Shown: positions 5,888 to 34,990, counted from the first letter of the whole stretch. The stretch is DNA of 59,759 nt, filler included, from Sphacelaria rigidula (GCA_964200075.2; 10 parts of 10 records of this genome joined end to end with filler, not necessarily neighbours in it); one strand, 5' to 3'. Numbers and translations are program-made. Notes: generated by a model from the letters alone, not told the origin.

Positions 5888-5987
5888 NNNNNNNNNNNNN
5901 NNNNNNNNNNNNNNNNNNNNNNNNNNNNNNNTTAATTAATTAANNNNNNNNNNNNNNNNNNNNNNNNNNNNNNNNNNNNNNNNNNNN
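5888..5987. other. Artificial contig-join spacer (44N-TTAATTAATTAA-44N). The same spacer occurs at 11875-11974, 17861-17960, 23847-23946, 29833-29932, 35819-35918, 41805-41904, 47790-47889 and 53775-53874
   Basis: Identical 100-bp spacer with stops in all six frames recurs every ~5986 bp. The segments between spacers shrink from 5887 to 5885 bp, as expected for length-sorted contigs. Confidence 0.98.
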
Positions 5988-11874: not shown

Positions 11875-12047
11875 NNNNNNNNNNNNNNNNNNNNNNNNNN
11901 NNNNNNNNNNNNNNNNNNTTAATTAATTAANNNNNNNNNNNNNNNNNNNNNNNNNNNNNNNNNNNNNNNNNNNNGGTATGAGATGTACCAAATACCGGTA
12001 CCGGGTACCTACCTTACCTACGGTGCCTGTGGAGAATATGTACCTTC

Positions 12048-12482
12048 CAGTAGATAACAGTGGATTCTCGGAAATGGGGTTGAAAAAAAATGAGGTTCAA
12101 CTCAAAAGCCGTGCTTTCCCTGACCTAAATTCATGAATGGCTTGTATATAGACCACCCCATCCCTCCCGACCTCCCTCAAACTATTTCGAGCGATTTCTA
12201 GCCTACCATTCCCCCCCAAAGGGTATGTGCGACAGCACGATTTCGGGGACGAAAAACGTCCTTTTTCACCCCGAAATTGAGGCAAAAATGTGCTTTCGCA
12301 CAAACCCTTTAAGGGAATGGAAGGCTAGACTTCCCCCGATATGGTTTTAGGGAGGTCGGGAAGGATGGGGTGGTCCATATGAAAGTCATTTGTCATAAAT
12401 TTTGGTCAGGGAATGCGCGGCTTTTGAGTTGAACCCCATTTTTTTTTCAACCCCAATTTCGAGAATCCATTGTTCGATACTG
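12048..12482. mobile_element. Foldback MITE, ~435 bp
   Basis: CAGTAGATAACAGTGGATTCTCGGAAATGGGGTTGAAAAAAAATG pairs with CATTTTTTTTTCAACCCCAATTTCGAGAATCCATTGTTCGATACTG. Arms ~200 bp. TC on both flanks (possible 2-bp TSD). Confidence 0.82.
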
Positions 12483-13899
12483 TCAAATTCCGCAGTTTCA
12501 ATTGTCCCAGACCAAGAGTGGCGGAAAAAGCGGTGGACACTTACAGCATCAAGAGCTCGCTTCACGGGCGGTGTGCGGAGGTGGGAAAAAAACCATCACG
12601 CACGAAACCCGTCACAGCACACATCGCAAGTGATTGCTACTGAAATAAGGTCGCGTCCCGGTAGTACACGGCGAACTCGTGCAGGGTTCTCTAAATGCCG
12701 GCCCGACCCCACGCGCACGAATTTCAAATCACACTTGTATACGGTACAGTATATATGTATGATACTGCTTGCTGTCTGTGTGTACGTGGTGTACCACCCC
12801 TCGCTCTGCCACATCTAGTACAGCGGTCGGTGTTGCAGTTGAGTGTGCATTTGCCCTGGGTGGCGCACGCAAAGCGCCCTAGGTGGCGCATGCAAGAGTA
12901 GTAGGTCGCCTCTGCTGCTTTAATTCCTGCCTGTATCTTGAGGGGAGCTGTATGGTAGCACAGCCGCTATGGGGCGCAAGCCGGCCGTAACAATTCATAC
13001 CGCGCGGAGATTTCTACATCGTCTTGAAGTCATACTACGCGCAGTCCCCACTTTTGTACGAGTACTGTGCACCTCGCAGAAGGCAATAGCTTCTATACTG
13101 TGCACAGTACATGCTTTTACTTTGTATACTGACTGTAGAAAGCTTTTGTCTAGGGTGTAATACATTTCCATACATATCAGGCGGCGAGATCGTGAAATAA
13201 TCCACAGCACATGGCCGAAGTGGAAGTGAGGTGATCACCGTAATATTCGCGTGCAAAGCCTGTACGGCCGTGCTCCGAGTTCATAACGCTAGAAGAACAC
13301 CAGTGCAACGGCCATTTCGGCTGCCGGTCTGTTTGCACGGCCGTCCCGGTAGTGATGGGACTGTCTGTACCGGGGTGTCGCCCCCAGTGCCAGGTACGCC
13401 GGCAAGGGTCCGTGGCACTACCCACTGGTGGAGCGACAGGAGCTTAATCTTCGACCGTCGAGATTTTTGAAGCGGAAATGTTCAGCTCCCAACCCTCACA
13501 TATATAGCGGACCATAAACGACGCTTGTTTGCTGGGTTTCCTCGAGCGTTCGTCCATAACTGGGCGAAGATTGATAATGAGGCCGGCAGGATCCGTCGCA
13601 GCCTGCGTGCTCAACTGTCACTGTACCCACTCTATCTAGCCGTTATCAGACAGCAGGGTGCTGAAAAAATAAAATGCCACGCACCGTGGGTATCCACCGT
13701 ATCAGTGCACACCAGGCCATCAGCGACTTCCCCTACTGCAGCTGTGACTGTGACCCCTTCCTCTAATGCCAATCTACACATTCTTCAGTGTTCTTCACCA
13801 TGCTTTTGTGGATTGTTATGTCCGCATAATTGGGGCACACATTACGCAGATATGACCGTGTGAGAGGCTTCACGTCTAAGCTAAATGATGAGGGATCTC

Positions 13900-14345
13900 A
13901 GATCATTCGACTTGTGTTTGCTGCTGACTGAGTCAAGGCAATGCCCAGCTGTTTCCTACTGCTTTGCTTCCATGTTTTCGTGACATTCGCTGCATAACCG
14001 CTGTCTTCGTGTTCCCAAATCGTCGAGAACGCAAAGAAAATCGCGGTGAAAAAATACCCCGTCATGAGCGGGCTTTTGTGGTTCTTGTTTGAGGTTTTCC
14101 ACGATCTTGAGGAAGGCTTTTGTGGTTCGGGATCGACACCCCGGGAAAAAGAGCCCGCGTGGGCGACTTTCGATGGCCAGAACACACGCCACAGGTATTA
14201 GGTGACACCCAAACCTGAACGGTAATGTACCGCTGCACCTTCTTCGTGCACTGCAAAAAAAAGCGCGTGATAAGATACCTCGCCGCCTGAGGAAACTCGG
14301 CAAAAGTGGTGGAAAAAGTGAATTGATGCATGTCCATATATAATA
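13900..14345 (-). repeat. Dispersed repeat; homologous copy at ~25130-25560 (+) and partial copy at ~28550-28660
   Basis: Near-identical segments (e.g. GTTCTGGCCATCGAAAGTCGCCCAC, GGGGTGTCGATCCCGAACCACAAAAGCCTT) occur on different contigs. Confidence 0.85.
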
Positions 14346-15158
14346 CACATAAACTGATGATGCGGTACGAATCCAGCCGCGTTCGCAGGGTGGACATCAT
14401 GAAGGTAGAAATGTAAAAACACATGATGACTCATAGTTACGGTATCCTGGGCCGCGCTCGTCGTTACGTTACACGTCGCTCCCGCCCCGTATGTTCTATC
14501 GAAGTTGGAAGTTTGAAATTCGGAAATTCGAAATTCGTACTTTTGGATTCCGATATCCGCTTGTTCTATGGCTTGGTGTGGTGTGGCGGTGCATGCTGCC
14601 GTGGCGCTGAACTTGCGCTCACATCGCGTGTATATATTGATGACGTATGCAGACTGCACACTCTTCTTGAAACCATGTATCATATCATACGAGTATCACA
14701 TACATGTGCTAATCTCACTAATTGTGGTGACGTATAGAGCCTTGAAAAATTCGGCATCTTACAACAAAAAAAACAGGAAAAAAAAAAAAAACATTTTCCG
14801 TCCGCCAGCATGATGCTTGCTGACCCCGACCGCCTCCAACCCAGCCTCCGACAATACCAAGCTTGTGTTCTGTAAGGTGTACCCGGAAGTGGGGTATTTT
14901 TTGTTGGCATACTAAACCGTACCGAAATGTGTACCGAACATCCCCGACCGGTCGGACAGGATATCGCGCCTCATTCCGAACAATCAGTTATGGTTCGGAC
15001 GGGTAACGTACCGATAAAAGTCTACCATTATACTTCTGTAAATACCCGAACATCAGCCGGTACACCTTACGGAACATAACCGTGGACAACAAAAAAAAAG
15101 AATGATGAAAAATACGGCAAGAAAAAATACAGAAGACCACACACCCACACCCACACAC

Positions 15159-15311
15159 CTTCACGGCCTTGTCCATTGTGGCTGCAATGCTGGGAGACAC
15201 TCCGTAAAGCCGCATGTCTAGGGCACCCAACCTCGCCGCGAGTTTGATGGTCTGACTCGGCTTCGAGATCGGGATACGAAGGGGCGGTTGTCCGATCGGC
15301 TGCCGCTTCAC
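15159..15311 (-). CDS. Next exon of the same gene (KS domain continuation)
   Basis: gttag|GTG AAG ... GTG AAG|gtgtgt; 153 nt, phase 0/0, in frame with the upstream exon. Peptide VKRQPIGQPPLRIPISKPSQTIKLAARLGALDMRLYGVSPSIAATMDKAVK fits the KS segment (FD..FG(I/V)S...A..MD). Confidence 0.82.
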
Positions 15312-15828
15312 CTAACCCACCCGACCACCCCGAAACAACAATCCGTCCGCATAAGGCACATACATACGGCACATACAGCGAAAACACGGGTGTAGTTCGG
15401 CGTACATATACATGAGGGAATCCAGCAGATCATAGCACAAACAGCACATGCAGGACACGCAGGACATTTAGGACATAGAGCATATTCAGCACATTCAGCA
15501 CATTTGAAAAATACCACTCCCAAAGCGTAGTGACAAGCAAGAAAGGGAAGGAGAGAAATGAAACGAAACGACACAAACCCGACGAGAAAAAAAACACACA
15601 CACACATTAAGTGGAAAAAAAAAAAACGAGGGGGAAGGACACGCATTTTTCCAAAATCAAGGATGAACTAAATTTGAATAAATGTATGATTGAAGAAGTT
15701 AATGCACAAGTAGTTGCTGGTCATTCAATTCTAGTTTCTTCATAGGGTCACATGTTCGTTAACTTTCTCGATGAGCAATACATGTGGACAAGACCGTACA
15801 GTACAACACAGTGACATTTCCCGTTCAC

Positions 15829-16912
15829 CTGAACCACATTCTTCTCGACGAGGGCAGCCATACTGGACTCACTCAACCGCTCCACGCATCCTTGCCCTCC
15901 CAGTAACCTATCTAAATTATCCTCCTCGAAAACCTTGGCTTGCCCGGGCAAACCGCACGCCACGCCAGTCACCACCACCCTGGGCAGTAGGGTTCCAAGC
16001 TTCGCCGCCGCCGCCACCACCACGGTGTTCTTCGATACACCAACAGCACCATCGCTCGTCATTTTCGCGCACGCAAGCGCCTCCGCAGACCCGTTCATCG
16101 GCGACGGAGTCGCCGACAACACCTCGTCCTCTGTCCCCGCTCTCCCGCCGCAGCTACTCACGCTCACGGCGGCGGTGCTCATGCTCGCTACCGTGCCACC
16201 ACTGCCGTTACTGCGCACGGCGCCGGCGCCCCTGCCGACATAGTCTTCTCCGCCGCTACACACTGCCTCGGGCATCGCTGACAGCGACTTCTCCTTCGCG
16301 GGTGAACGCCCGGCCTGTTCCACCACTGGTGTCGTCTTCGCAGCGGACGCCGCCGCCAAGGCCTCCGTTGCTGTCGGGGGTGAAGTTGAAGAAATACGGG
16401 AGGCCGGTGAGGAGGAGGAGCAGACTTCAGGTGTCACATCGGAACATGACACAGCAGCACCCTCGGCATTGGTGGGCTTGTCGGCAGGAGCTAAAGTGCC
16501 CCCACGCGCACGAAGCGCATCCGTCGGCCGCCGGGCGTAGCTGCGAGTGTAGCCCACGCCGACACCTTCCAAGTAAAACGTTCCGGGGAAAAGTCGGTCC
16601 AACGGGTACTTGGGCACGAAACGGTAAACTTTACCAGTCCCAGCCCCGTCCCGTTGTGGCTGTCCTCGGCCAGAGGACTGGGAGCAGTGATGGTGCGCGC
16701 TGGCTCGAGCTGCGAGCGCCAAGTCGAGCTCTGCTGGGGGCAGCTTCTCCCGGTCGGCGAGCCTCGATGCCAGGTTAACAGCGTCTTTGATGCGGGCCAC
16801 GGTGAAGGCAGGCGAAGATCCGTTGGAAGTTGTGGATGCGGTGCAATTGGTGTTGGTCGGGTTGGTCGTGCTTGTGTCTCTAAACTCCAGCTCGTACATC
16901 GTAGCGATGGCC
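15829..16912 (-). CDS. Internal exon of an HMG-CoA synthase / beta-ketoacyl synthase fusion protein: HMGS C-terminus, low-complexity linker, KS N-terminus
   Basis: Acceptor ccacag|G GCC ATC and donor CAG|gtgaac; 1084 nt open. Peptide (G)AIATMYEL follows where the HMGS SYGSG motif would lie, then LASRLADREKLPPAEL...HH...PKYPLDRLFPGTFYLEGV...RSYARRP (HMGS C-terminus). After an Ala/Ser-rich linker comes RVVVTGVACGLPGQAKVFEEDNLDRLLGGQGCV (KS start). Confidence 0.88.
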
Positions 16913-17081
16913 CTGTGGCGTTGGATCATAACCAAATTCCGACAAGGGGTGAGAGGTGATGATGTGGTGATGGGGTGAGAGGGGGGGGGAGGGGGGGGGG
17001 AGACGAAGCAACTCGGATGTCTTCCGAGCTGGGCCAGCCTTGAAGCGGATTTGTAGTTTGCAGGCGAATTCACGATTTTAT

Positions 17082-17307
17082 ACTTGGAGTTGGACAGAGA
17101 AACTTTGTATGGACAATCAACAGGGCATGAAAAAAATGTGTGCGGGGTCCCAAAGTTTTTTTTTTTATTTCAGGGCAAATTACTAAAACCGTAAAACTGA
17201 TTATTACCCTTGACTCATGAAAAAAAAAAAACTTTGAGACCCCGCGCACATGTTTTTTTTATGCCCTCCTGATTGTCCATACAAAATTTCACTGTCCAAC
17301 TCTGAGT
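17082..17307. repeat. Intronic inverted repeat / MITE-like hairpin
   Basis: GAGTTGGACAGAGAAACTTTGTATGGACAATCA pairs with TGATTGTCCATACAAAATTTCACTGTCCAACTC; ~100-bp arms. Confidence 0.75.
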
Positions 17308-17772
17308 GAAAAAATTGCGAAATCGCCTTTTCAAAACCGGGCCGGTGGAAGTTCGGAACAGTATTTTGCAGGCCTTTTACCGGCCCACGTTTGGTGTTTG
17401 TGTTATGAAACTTTGTGCGGGACCTCGCTAGGTCATGATGAACCAAAAAAAATGGATCAGGTTGGTTTTGGTATTTTTTTCGCTGGTTCAGGGCGTTTTG
17501 TTAGTATGACAACGCCCATTTTTTACGAGAACGTCCGAACTTCTCCCCCCCCCCGCCAAAAATGAAGGCCGATTTTTTTTAATTCAGTATACCTCTATCG
17601 TTCTCCATACTGAGTTTCAAATCTCCATTTTAAAAAATTGAGCTGAAAAATAAGGCCCAAGAGCAATGTTCATTTCTCCTCGAACCTCCCCTAGAAACAC
17701 GAAAAAAGTGAATAAAAATAAAACGGAAAAAACCCGGAAAAGCTGTTATCTTTATTTCATTATGCACTAGAC

Positions 17773-17860
17773 GCCGCGCCCCGGTAGTGTAATGGTCCGT
17801 CTGTCGCCATTAGGGTGGAAAGAACGGGGGTTCGATCCCCGATGCGTTGGGTTTTTTCTT
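17773..17860 (+). mobile_element. tRNA-derived SINE head
   Basis: GCCCCGGTAGTGTAATGG (A box) ... GGGGGTTCGATCCCC (B box) followed by a T run. No convincing cloverleaf. A second copy lies at 2030-2118. Confidence 0.65.
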
Positions 17861-32802: not shown

Positions 32803-34990
32803 CCGAGGAGCGGGATGCGGCGGTGGAACGCTTAGTAGAGCGCGGCCCGGAGATGTTAATGATTCCGGCGGAAGAGGAGTCCACTCGGAAGGTCGCGCTG
32901 GAGGACAGCGTGACGGATGCTGGGACGACAGGCCTCAGCGTCTCAAAAGTGGAGCGCCTGCGCGGTATATTGCATTGCCGCGCCAACGCGTTTCGTCGTG
33001 CGCTGCGGTGTGATCTCCCTGCGTGCGTGAAGCCCATGCGTGTCCAGCCAAAACCTGGGGCGTCCGCGGTGAAGACGAAGCCGCGACGGTACGATCCAGT
33101 GAAGTCGAGTTGGTTGGCGTTGTGCATGGCGGCTCTTTTGGCGCTCGGGTTGGTGTTACGGAATATGCAGGCGGGGTGGTTCAGTCCAAATATGACGTGT
33201 CCGATGAAGGCTGCGTCGTGGACGGAGGGCAGGCTGCAGGCGTGGGCAGCAGCAAAGGATCTGGTGGCTCATGCCGTGACGCTGTTCCATCCTCGTCCTG
33301 ATTGGCAGGTGTTTATGTTTCCGGATGTATTCGAGTGCCATTGGGGTAGTTTGGTTATGCAGGTCCCTACTGTTGAAATTCGAATGCCTGTGCGCGCTGT
33401 GGCTGTGTATGGTCCGTGTGAACCTGATGAATCGATGCCGTCCGAATCTGTTGTCCACCAAGCACAACGAAAAGACCTTGGGGCCGAAGATGCGGATGTG
33501 CAACCTTTCGAATCGGACATTGGTACTGCTATCTTGGACAATGAAGGTTTGTCTCGTGTGCATGTGCGTGGCCGGAACGTTTTGTGGATTCCGAGTTCTG
33601 ACAAGCAGTTGCAGGTACGTCTGATGATTTGCGCGCACATGCGCGACGCCGGGCATCGTGGTGTGGCTGCGACGTGTGCTTGCAAGAGTTTTGTGTCTGG
33701 CAGGGGATTGAAACTCATGTGCGCGAATTTGTCCGCCAGTGTCTTCACTGTGCTGACATAAATGCGGGCGATGTTGTTCCCCGCCCGCTCGGCGAAACGG
33801 TCCATGGGACCACGCCGAATGAAGTCGTTTATTTTGACTTCTTATACGTGGGCGAGAGTGGCCCGCTAGCTTCCCAAGGTTTGTCGGGGGGTGCTGGGTT
33901 TCAATACATTTTGGTAACCATGGATGATTTGAGCAACGTTGTGACTCTGGAACCAGTACCAGTGTGTACTGCTGAATCGATCGCTCCATCTTTGCTGAAT
34001 TGGTGCAAAACTTTGGGGGTACCGCGTGTGTGGGTGAGGGATACCGCCACGCATTTCGAGAATGCGATCTTGGCCCGATTGCGAGAGGCTTCGCACGTTG
34101 ATCACCAGTTTGCGGTAGCGTATTCTCCGTGGTCTAACGGTACGTGCGAACGCATGGTCAAGGAAGTAGTTCGTGCTCTTCGCTCTATTCCTCTCGAGCA
34201 GCGTTGAGAGGTGACCGAGTGGGTGGACGTGTTGCCCGCTGTGCAATGGGCGCTAAATACAGCATATCGCCGTCGGTACGATAATACGGCGTAGCACGTG
34301 ATGTTTGATCGTGCCCTTCGGATGTCTTCCTCGGTGCTGACGTCTTCGTCGGCGGGGGAATGGAAGTGTGATGTTCTGGACGATGTTCAAATTAAGAGTG
34401 CATTGCAAGGAGTCTCGGACTTGCAAGAATGTTTCCACGTTCAAGTGCAGGGACGTGTTGCCGCTGAACGTGCGCGTAGACGTGAGGGGTCCTCGTCGGG
34501 GCTGGAATTGCCGAATTTTGAGGTAGGCGACTATGTCTTGTATGCACGCGTGCATCGTCCGGGTATCACACCCAAGTTGATGGCGACGTGGACTGATCCA
34601 TGGAGAGTGGTTGGTCCTCACCATCCGCACGTGTTTGAGATTCAGAACATTGTTTCGGATCGCATTCAGACCGCCCATGTAATAGCACGTTTGCGTTTTT
34701 ATGCAGACTCGCAGCTTAAGGTTACGGCTGACGTTAAGGACGTGTTCCAGCACGCTTTCAATCAGGAGCAATTTCAGATGGCTGGTATTGTCCGAGTGGC
34801 AGAAGCAGACGATCGTTCGTTGATCGTGTTGATCGATTGGGTTGGTTTCGAAGTTGAGGAGCGTACGTGGGAGCCTTTCGAGGAAATTTTTGAGGCCGCT
34901 CCGGAATCTCTAACGAAGGAGATGCCTAAACTGCGCGTGGCTCGTGCCGTTGCTGCTCGCATTTCGGATGAGTTTGGTGTTCAGTTGTGA
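32799..34990 (+). pseudogene. pol remnant: RT core missing, partial RNase H, integrase and chromodomain
   Basis: KPRRYDP (pre-RT) jumps to W...AW...KDLVAHAVTLFHP...MFPD. Then HMRDAGHRG...CLHC, VYFDFLY, DTATHF, YSPWSNGTCERM (integrase) and IDWVGFEVEERTWEP (chromodomain). No YxDD motif seen. Confidence 0.9.

Follow-up and report, generated by a model that had tools for sequence, protein, structure and literature searches.

An HMG-CoA synthase–ketosynthase fusion in the brown alga Sphacelaria rigidula and its possible role at the entry to the mevalonate pathway

The window analyzed here, a stretch of 59,759 nucleotides from Sphacelaria rigidula (GCA_964200075.2), contains part of a gene that encodes HMG-CoA synthase (HMGS) and a ketosynthase (KS) in a single polypeptide. 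We propose that the product could be a two-domain cytosolic enzyme placed at the entry to the mevalonate pathway. Its N-terminal domain would be an ordinary eukaryotic HMGS and its C-terminal domain an active Cys-His-His KS with a short acyl pocket. The KS would load acetyl onto its cysteine and condense it with malonyl-CoA in a decarboxylation-driven reaction, and the tethered HMGS would convert the resulting acetoacetyl-CoA into HMG-CoA. Such a route would supplement or replace the reversible thiolase step. That the KS makes acetoacetyl-CoA from acetyl-CoA and malonyl-CoA for the attached HMGS is a tentative reading, held with slightly less than even confidence; we infer the KS activity, its substrates, its use of CoA rather than ACP, the cytosolic location and the hand-over between the domains. 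The fusion architecture was known; the short-chain gate and the Asgard-linked ancestry suggested here for the KS, both read from sequence comparison, were not found in the literature searched.

The fusion gene and its transcripts

This part of the gene lies on the only contiguous piece of DNA around it (11,975..17,860), which is bounded by 100-nt N spacers at 11,875 and 17,861. Both exons recovered are on the minus strand. Exon A (15,829..16,912, 1084 nt) has splice sites and an open frame, and encodes the HMGS C-terminus, a linker and the first 51 residues of the KS. The HMGS part (16,531..16,912, ~127 aa) covers positions 203-280 of PF08540 (E 1.6e-4) and aligns by tblastn to residues 409-542 of the orthologue P0003. 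It is followed by an Ala/Ser/Thr-rich, low-complexity linker of ~183 aa (15,982..16,530, counted on the exon A translation) and by the start of the KS (15,829..15,981), which is 74-82% identical to brown-algal orthologues. The translation thus runs from LASRLADRE, LFPGTFYL and RSYARRP through the linker into RVVVTGVACGLPG. A phase 0 GT-AG intron of 517 nt (15,312..15,828, minus strand) separates exon A from exon B (15,159..15,311, 153 nt), whose 51 residues continue the KS with 83-89% identity to P0003-P0006. Exon A is flanked by a CAG| acceptor and a |GTGAAC donor, and exon B by a TAG| acceptor and a |GTGTGT donor. The frame joined across the two exons contains no stops, while the remaining frames contain 10 and 14. 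The original prediction of one exon spanning both domains, followed by a correctly phased second exon, is therefore confirmed.

That prediction also anticipated profile hits to both domains. HMG_CoA_synt_C matched the window's open reading frame weakly (E 1.6e-4; 21.9 bits, below the 25.1 cut-off) because the frame is a fragment, and the Pfam scan of the window fragments returned no KS match, ketoacyl-synt included. A KS profile made from relatives matched the two exons with an E-value of 9e-32. The catalytic residues of both domains fall outside the contiguous 11,975-17,860, and tblastn with 11 full-length orthologues found exons A and B alone within the window, the remaining exons lying beyond it.

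Spliced contigs that span both exons and drop exactly the 517-nt intron (junction "skips 517, CT..AC") were present in three of four public runs (X5, X7 and X9, from two studies). We read these three runs as RNA from the skipped intron, the kind of run being guessed or unrecorded. The fourth run (X1) lacks the junction and carries unspliced DNA covering 14,915-17,020. The spliced contigs are 5235, 5253 or 3563 nt long, with 1330-1409 nt ahead of exon A and up to 2683 nt beyond exon B; by comparison with P0003, these flanks would accommodate what the two exons lack of HMGS (~408 aa) and of KS (~443 aa), together with untranslated regions. As the domains share exon A and the intron is skipped in transcript-like contigs, we rejected a gene-prediction artefact. 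The exons of both domains sit on one spliced contig, and this, together with the two-domain orthologues described below, bears out the original claim that the fusion is a true single polypeptide rather than a prediction join.

Orthologues in brown algae, diatoms and oomycetes

Among 14 longer proteins that matched, from Scytosiphon, Ectocarpus, Ascophyllum, Phaeothamnion, Cyclotella and Thalassiosira, 12 carry HMGS_N, HMGS_C and ketoacyl-synt domains (PF01154, PF08540 and PF00109). A search with the KS region gave 603 matches at 1e-30, and the 120 listed include Saprolegnia, Phytophthora, Peronospora, Pythium, Globisporangium and many diatoms. The stramenopile homologues that had been suspected thus exist in brown algae, diatoms and oomycetes, where the fusion orthologues are two-domain proteins of 950-1200 aa. 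Brown-algal proteins are the nearest relatives of the window exons, which are 48-49% identical over 412 aa to the full-length fusions of Ectocarpus and Scytosiphon; for the KS pieces alone, identity to the Ectocarpus protein is 82-89%.

To quantify conservation, we used 60 full-length proteins of at least 930 aa. In the HMGS domain, the catalytic Glu is kept in 58 (at a position that we take to be the catalytic one from its spacing), and Cys, His and Asn in 59 each. In the KS domain the Cys is kept in all 60, which answers the question raised earlier of Cys versus Ser or Gln, and the first His, the Lys, the second His and the gate Phe in 59 each; the single exception is a truncated gene model. 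Between a brown alga and oomycetes, HMGS (51-53% identity) and KS (52-56%) are conserved to the same degree. The linker varies from 21 to 131 aa, compared with ~183 aa in the Sphacelaria rigidula gene.

All 60 chains end within 16 aa of the KS. No ACP, AT, KR or ECH was found in the precomputed domains of the 120 relatives listed, and Pfam scans of eight orthologues returned no ACP, AT or ECH. Of the further domains that the original prediction had proposed to look for, AT, ACP, KR and ECH are missing in cis from the orthologues examined, and we read from these proteins that the whole Sphacelaria gene probably lacks AT, ACP and reductive domains as well. A multimodular type I PKS or FAS was rejected on the same grounds, the orthologues being without AT, ACP and reductive domains and ending at most 16 aa past the KS.

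Two orthologues depart from the common plan. P0020 is a fusion with a hydrophobic N-terminus in which Glu, Cys, His and Asn are gone from the HMGS and the KS triad is intact. P0166, a Pythium protein of 1550 aa, carries HMGS-KS together with a polycystin channel, which another strain encodes in a gene of its own; it is likely a gene-model join and was left out of the 60.

The HMG-CoA synthase domain

By sequence, the HMGS domain is of the eukaryotic mevalonate type and not of the type used in polyketide beta-branching. The orthologue P0003 scores 523.6 bits against the eukaryotic HMGS family TIGR01833 (cut-off 286.2), and the HMGS of P0289, used as query, aligns to plant and human HMGS with 444-459 bits, compared with 42-47 bits for CurD and PksG. 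These scores argue against the original suggestion of a beta-branching HMGS. The orthologues match eukaryotic mevalonate HMGS (TIGR01833; PDB 2P8U, 2WYA, 2F82 and 7CQT) over the whole domain and in the catalytic residues, and differ in bearing an extra C-terminal KS of ~530 aa. The HMGS chain of PDB 6ESQ was also among the structures matched.

Fold, active site and acyl pocket of the ketosynthase

The predicted structure of the KS from a diatom orthologue (pLDDT 89.8) superposes on FabF with a Z-score of 47.8 (rmsd 2.3, 404 residues aligned). A full-length model of the fusion, built from a 13-row alignment, had a pLDDT of 45.5 and was set aside. FabF/KAS II structures, the I108F mutant among them (PDB 4LS5, 4LS6 and 1KAS), were tied as best comparisons (Z 46-48, rmsd 2.1-2.4, ~404 aligned). 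The fusion KS shares with FabF the Cys-His-His triad, the Lys and a Thr pair, and its gate Phe corresponds to that of I108F. It differs from FabF in sequence (~24% identity), in ~100 aa of insertions, in having Phe at the Ile108 position and in having His-Glu-Thr (HET) for His-Gly-Thr. P0003 scores 91.4 bits against the FabF family TIGR03150, well below the cut-off of 493.75, and none of its 18 NCBIfam matches is a fabH family; the triad is Cys-His-His rather than the Cys-His-Asn of KAS III.

In the profile alignment, the Ser-Ser-Phe-Pro of the fusion KS falls on Ser-Gly-Ile/Val-Gly of FabF. The position that we take to be Ile108 in E. coli numbering is Phe or Tyr in all 60 orthologues, and the preceding Ser (Gly in FabF) and a partner Phe are likewise present in 60 of 60. 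Since HMMER alignments with the solved structures of FabF left the Ile108 region uncovered, the gate was mapped by aligning profiles with three FabF-like proteins of genomes G004 and G005. According to PMC9006962, FabF I108F chiefly elongates C6 to C8, and elongating KSs normally use ACP. Given the Phe at this gate and the chain-length limit of I108F, the acyl pocket of the fusion KS is probably short, and a pocket of this kind would not single out acetyl.

The Glu after the first catalytic His, where FabF has Gly, is kept in 59 of the 60 orthologues. His-Glu-Thr occurs in the whole KS family (residues 1078-1082 of P0003), and other elongating KSs have His-Gly-Thr.

Relatives in prokaryotic giant synthases and stand-alone copies

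In a search of 1.84 billion representative sequences, the nearest non-eukaryotic relatives of the fusion KS were the second ketosynthases (KS2) of giant synthases with the order (ER)-KS1-AT-KS2-ACPn-KR-DH-(PPTase). Those closest to the fusion KS come from Heimdallarchaeota, other Asgard archaea and Thermoplasmatota, and such synthases span Asgard archaea, Thermoplasmatota, Myxococcota, Acidobacteriota and Solirubrobacterales. PMC7472256 mentions a PKS-like cluster in Heimdallarchaeota. KS2 and the fusion KS are 33-41% identical over ~500 aa and share the NAAC, HET, TKGxTGH and SxFP motifs; the eukaryotic KS differs in lacking ACP, AT, KR and DH in cis. On sequence, then, the fusion KS is a member of the KS2 family, which agrees with the original claim of a relationship to type I synthase domains. 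KS1 of the giants has Met at the gate position, and their AT carries an AFH motif.

We surveyed 80 genome loci of this family, retained from 146. Only one, L001 from Heimdallarchaeota, is a complete stand-alone gene, and the others are giants or pieces cut by contig ends. Acyl-CoA dehydrogenase genes are neighbours at 35 of the 80 loci and acyl-CoA carboxylase subunits at 13, as expected for fatty-acid synthesis. At those 35 loci (for example L057:5246-6937) the dehydrogenase gene immediately precedes the giant, with ETF genes nearby at ~10, and its product may serve as enoyl reductase where the ER domain is unfused. The ER-KS1-AT-KS2-ACP-KR-DH-PPTase giants of Asgard archaea (L011:3588-17990, L032 and L008) adjoin genes for a carboxyltransferase, biotin carboxylase, biotin ligase and a hydrolase; their appearance is that of an archaeal type I fatty-acid synthase. 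No FabH passed the cut-off in eight of ten giant-synthase genomes, and one did in each of the other two; the eight genomes are consistent with a priming role for KS2.

The KS2 family is present in 47 of 83 genomes of the Asgard class to which G001 belongs and in 60 of 400 genomes of its phylum. Outside this phylum, it was found in 18 of 301 genomes sampled from the Acidobacteriota phylum, 79 of 301 from the Myxococcota phylum and 131 of 401 from the Thermoplasmatota phylum, where the few short KS frames are near contig starts or on small contigs. Six of the 47 positive genomes in the G001 class have a stand-alone copy of 499-561 aa. Inspection of ORF starts around these six copies revealed no common gene context and no neighbouring ACP or HMGS. 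PF01154 matched nothing above its cut-off in five of five genomes with a stand-alone copy; judging from ORF sizes, apparently ordinary archaeal HMGS-thiolase pairs would lie elsewhere in those genomes. Two giants whose records are titled Klebsiella pneumoniae and Enterobacteriaceae (L046 and L066) group with myxococcal and deltaproteobacterial ones, and the labels are probably wrong.

Eukaryotic KS proteins free of HMGS appear in records from Prymnesium, Aureoumbra, Cyanophora, Gloeochaete, Ceratiomyxa and Pterocystis, some of which, being predator transcriptomes, may hold prey sequences. In one eukaryote-type sub-branch (P0049, P0053, P0057, P0058, P0072, P0142, P0160 and P0165) the KS stands behind a degenerate methyltransferase-like domain, and PF08241 came near its cut-off in three of these proteins. 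The stand-alone KS of Ceratiomyxa (P0093) has an N-terminus that resembles a mitochondrial presequence by eye.

Origin of the ketosynthase

We built three trees of the KS family, with FastTree (244 rows), IQ-TREE under LG+G4 (95 rows) and LG+C20 with bootstraps on 52 chosen rows, and all three agree. A single branch (97/97) sets the eukaryote-type rows, fused and free alike, apart from the rest. Next to them are L001 and the unplaced P0098 (100/99), L001 having been retrieved with P0098 as the query, followed by the other stand-alone Asgard copies; the prokaryotic rows nearest to the eukaryotic KS are thus stand-alone copies from genomes of the Heimdallarchaeia class. Eukaryote-type and stand-alone Asgard rows together are separated from all giants (94/97). 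The AU test rejects a grouping of eukaryotes with bacteria (p 0.0005) and an all-Asgard group that excludes eukaryotes (p 0.0002), both groups having been defined after the quick trees were seen. Rooting with FabF and KS1 (48 rows, 12 dropped) puts the root among bacterial giants and nests eukaryotes within the stand-alone Asgard group (97, 98), but the outgroup branch is very long. Several Asgard rows are compositionally biased, and many rows count as eukaryotic through their grouping.

From these trees, we lean modestly towards an Asgard origin of the eukaryotic KS. A bacterial donor was rejected on the AU test (p 0.0005) and on the placement beside the Heimdallarchaeia copies. The KS tree would then point to an archaeal-host origin for a eukaryotic acyl-condensing enzyme, and the widespread FAS-like giants in Asgard (47/83) and Thermoplasmatota (131/401) genomes bear on how the first eukaryotes came by fatty-acid synthesis. 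A broader scenario, rather doubtful when taken as a whole, would make the KS an unrecognised eukaryotic family inherited from the Asgard host. It would have been the priming KS of a giant FAS-like protein, freed in Heimdallarchaeia, kept in glaucophytes, haptophytes, amoebozoans and others, and fused to HMGS before oomycetes and ochrophytes diverged; in these lineages it would provide a thiolase-independent, malonyl-CoA-driven and ACP-free entry to the mevalonate pathway.

The fusion in earlier literature

Although the original prediction allowed for a novel architecture, HMGS-KS is already tabulated in PMC2705460, and PMC4052811 records PF00109 in the HMGS proteins of N. oceanica and E. siliculosus. 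The Sphacelaria gene is a brown-algal orthologue of this stramenopile fusion, with the same two domains and a longer linker as the only difference from the form described in the accessible parts of those papers, which neither test nor explain a function for the KS. The available portion of PMC4052811 gives the diatom identifiers as HMGS only, and so truncated gene models probably concealed the KS there. The accessible text of PMC9004409, PMC13763962 and PMC11334171 contains nothing on the fusion. The literature searched, with most subscription journals outside it, yielded neither work on the function of this KS nor a paper that links it to Asgard proteins.

Possible functions of the fused enzyme

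Diatoms, brown algae and oomycetes are assumed to begin sterol and isoprenoid synthesis with a thiolase reaction. If the KS instead supplied acetoacetyl-CoA, malonyl-CoA would enter irreversibly, sterol synthesis would be tied to acetyl-CoA carboxylase, and the fusion would be a one-gene module for isoprenoid engineering. The proposed job would resemble, by functional analogy only, that of NphT7, which drives acetoacetyl-CoA formation for HMGS; NphT7 is a KAS III-type acetoacetyl-CoA synthase with a Cys-His-Asn triad, whereas the fusion KS is Cys-His-His and covalently attached to HMGS. A second functional analogy is the archaeal thiolase/HMGS/DUF35 complex, which channels acetoacetyl-CoA to HMGS; similar channelling is proposed for the fusion, with a KS in place of the thiolase. 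The original prediction had offered the channelling of acetoacetyl units to HMGS as one of its possibilities, and it is the one that we tentatively prefer. Supply of acetoacetyl-CoA by the KS is consistent with the conservation of both active sites in the orthologues, the narrowed gate and the lack of a carrier domain in cis, and a priming role for KS2 fits the Met gate of KS1, the AFH motif of the AT and the absence of FabH above cut-off from eight of ten genomes. In addition, the diatom proteins Tp260768 and Pt16649, fused according to PMC2705460, carry the identifiers of the diatom mevalonate HMGS in the supplement to PMC4052811. Several observations argue against this reading. The Phe gate would cap chains at about C6-C8 without selecting acetyl, the nearest prokaryotic relatives mostly carry ACPs in cis, FabH exceeds the cut-off in two of the ten giant-synthase genomes, and the HMGS of Spumella has 464 aa. 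Weighing against it as well are the HMGS-free KSs of other eukaryotes, the degenerate HMGS of P0020, the persistence of the fusion in Nannochloropsis and the second HMGS of Ectocarpus, all taken up below. The available text of PMC4052811 lists AACT (thiolase) genes for diatoms, Ectocarpus and Nannochloropsis, and that of PMC5289490 gives oomycete HMGS and AACT with the KS unmentioned; such genes would be an alternative source of acetoacetyl-CoA.

These AACT genes also fit two independent enzymes on one chain, a possible though doubtful alternative in which HMGS would use thiolase-made acetoacetyl-CoA while the KS, perhaps together with an ACP in trans, made C4-C8 primers for a separate lipid or fatty-acid pathway; the fusion would then couple only their expression and location. 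Stand-alone KSs of the same branch, many of which have a hydrophobic N-terminus or a methyltransferase-like domain, occur in several eukaryotic groups (haptophytes, pelagophytes, glaucophytes, amoebozoans and centrohelids); P0020 keeps its KS triad beside a degenerate HMGS, and the linker varies in length from 21 to ~183 aa. Yet oomycetes, diatoms and brown algae have all retained the fusion, both sites are intact in at least 57 of 60 proteins, the gene brings no ACP in cis, and with acetyl as primer one reaction would follow chemically on the other. The domains might instead work in series towards a product outside the mevalonate pathway, turning a C4-C6 3-oxoacyl-CoA into HMG-CoA or a homologue that would feed branched-chain acyl primers or leucine-related metabolism. 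The pocket reaching C6-C8 would allow this, and in the accessible part of PMC4052811 Nannochloropsis retains the fusion without HMGR, MVK, PMK and PMD, for which a non-mevalonate function is suggested, while Ectocarpus, with a complete pathway, has a spare, KS-free HMGS. We think it unlikely: the fused diatom gene is the HMGS listed for the pathway, the HMGS domain lies near plant and human HMGS like typical members, and the same portion of PMC4052811 reports that the Nannochloropsis fusion transcript is regulated on sterol depletion.

Two further readings depart from a condensing KS that serves a CoA-type HMGS, and both are much less probable than those above. The KS might act chiefly as a malonyl-CoA decarboxylase or as an acyl-transfer sensor coupling cytosolic malonyl-CoA to HMGS. 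The invariant Glu of HET (59/60), where FabF has Gly, could be taken this way, and acylated or Cys-to-Gln KSs decarboxylate malonyl groups, according to the accessible part of PMC9006962. Conservation of the nucleophilic Cys and the gate Phe is complete, however, and HET is also found in the KS inside the prokaryotic synthases, which makes this very unlikely. The original prediction raised, as one possibility, a multidomain enzyme for branched polyketide or lipid synthesis. In a beta-branching unit of this kind the KS would decarboxylate malonyl-ACP to acetyl-ACP and the HMGS would add this to a polyketide-bound beta-keto group. Beta-branching cassettes (CurD, PksG, KS0, donor ACP and ECH) do contain an HMGS and a KS together, and the fusion has this pairing of folds in common with them. 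In such cassettes, however, Ser replaces the catalytic Cys of the KS, whereas Cys is present in 60 of 60 orthologues; the HMGS belongs to another clade, being CoA-type by its bit scores (444-459 versus 42-47); the chains end at most 16 aa past the KS; and ACP, AT and ECH are absent from the eight Pfam-scanned orthologues and from the 120 relatives listed. A BLAST match to eukaryotic HMGS was found at none of the 80 prokaryotic loci of the KS family. We regard beta-branching as largely refuted and its probability as minimal.

Other features of the window

The window links unrelated, length-sorted contigs of ~5.9 kb through 100-nt spacers (44 N, a six-frame stop linker and 44 N) at 5888, 11,875, 17,861, 23,847, 29,833, 35,819, 41,805, 47,790 and 53,775, so that adjacency across spacers is meaningless. 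Within the contig of the fusion gene, the intronic DNA at 11,975-14,340 and 17,000-17,860 is rich in high-copy repeats; in the DNA run its depth exceeds that of the exons by factors of hundreds to thousands. Elsewhere, the plus strand at 33,602-34,987 has weak integrase and chromodomain matches, all below cut-off and in broken frames, and is probably a decayed LTR retrotransposon.
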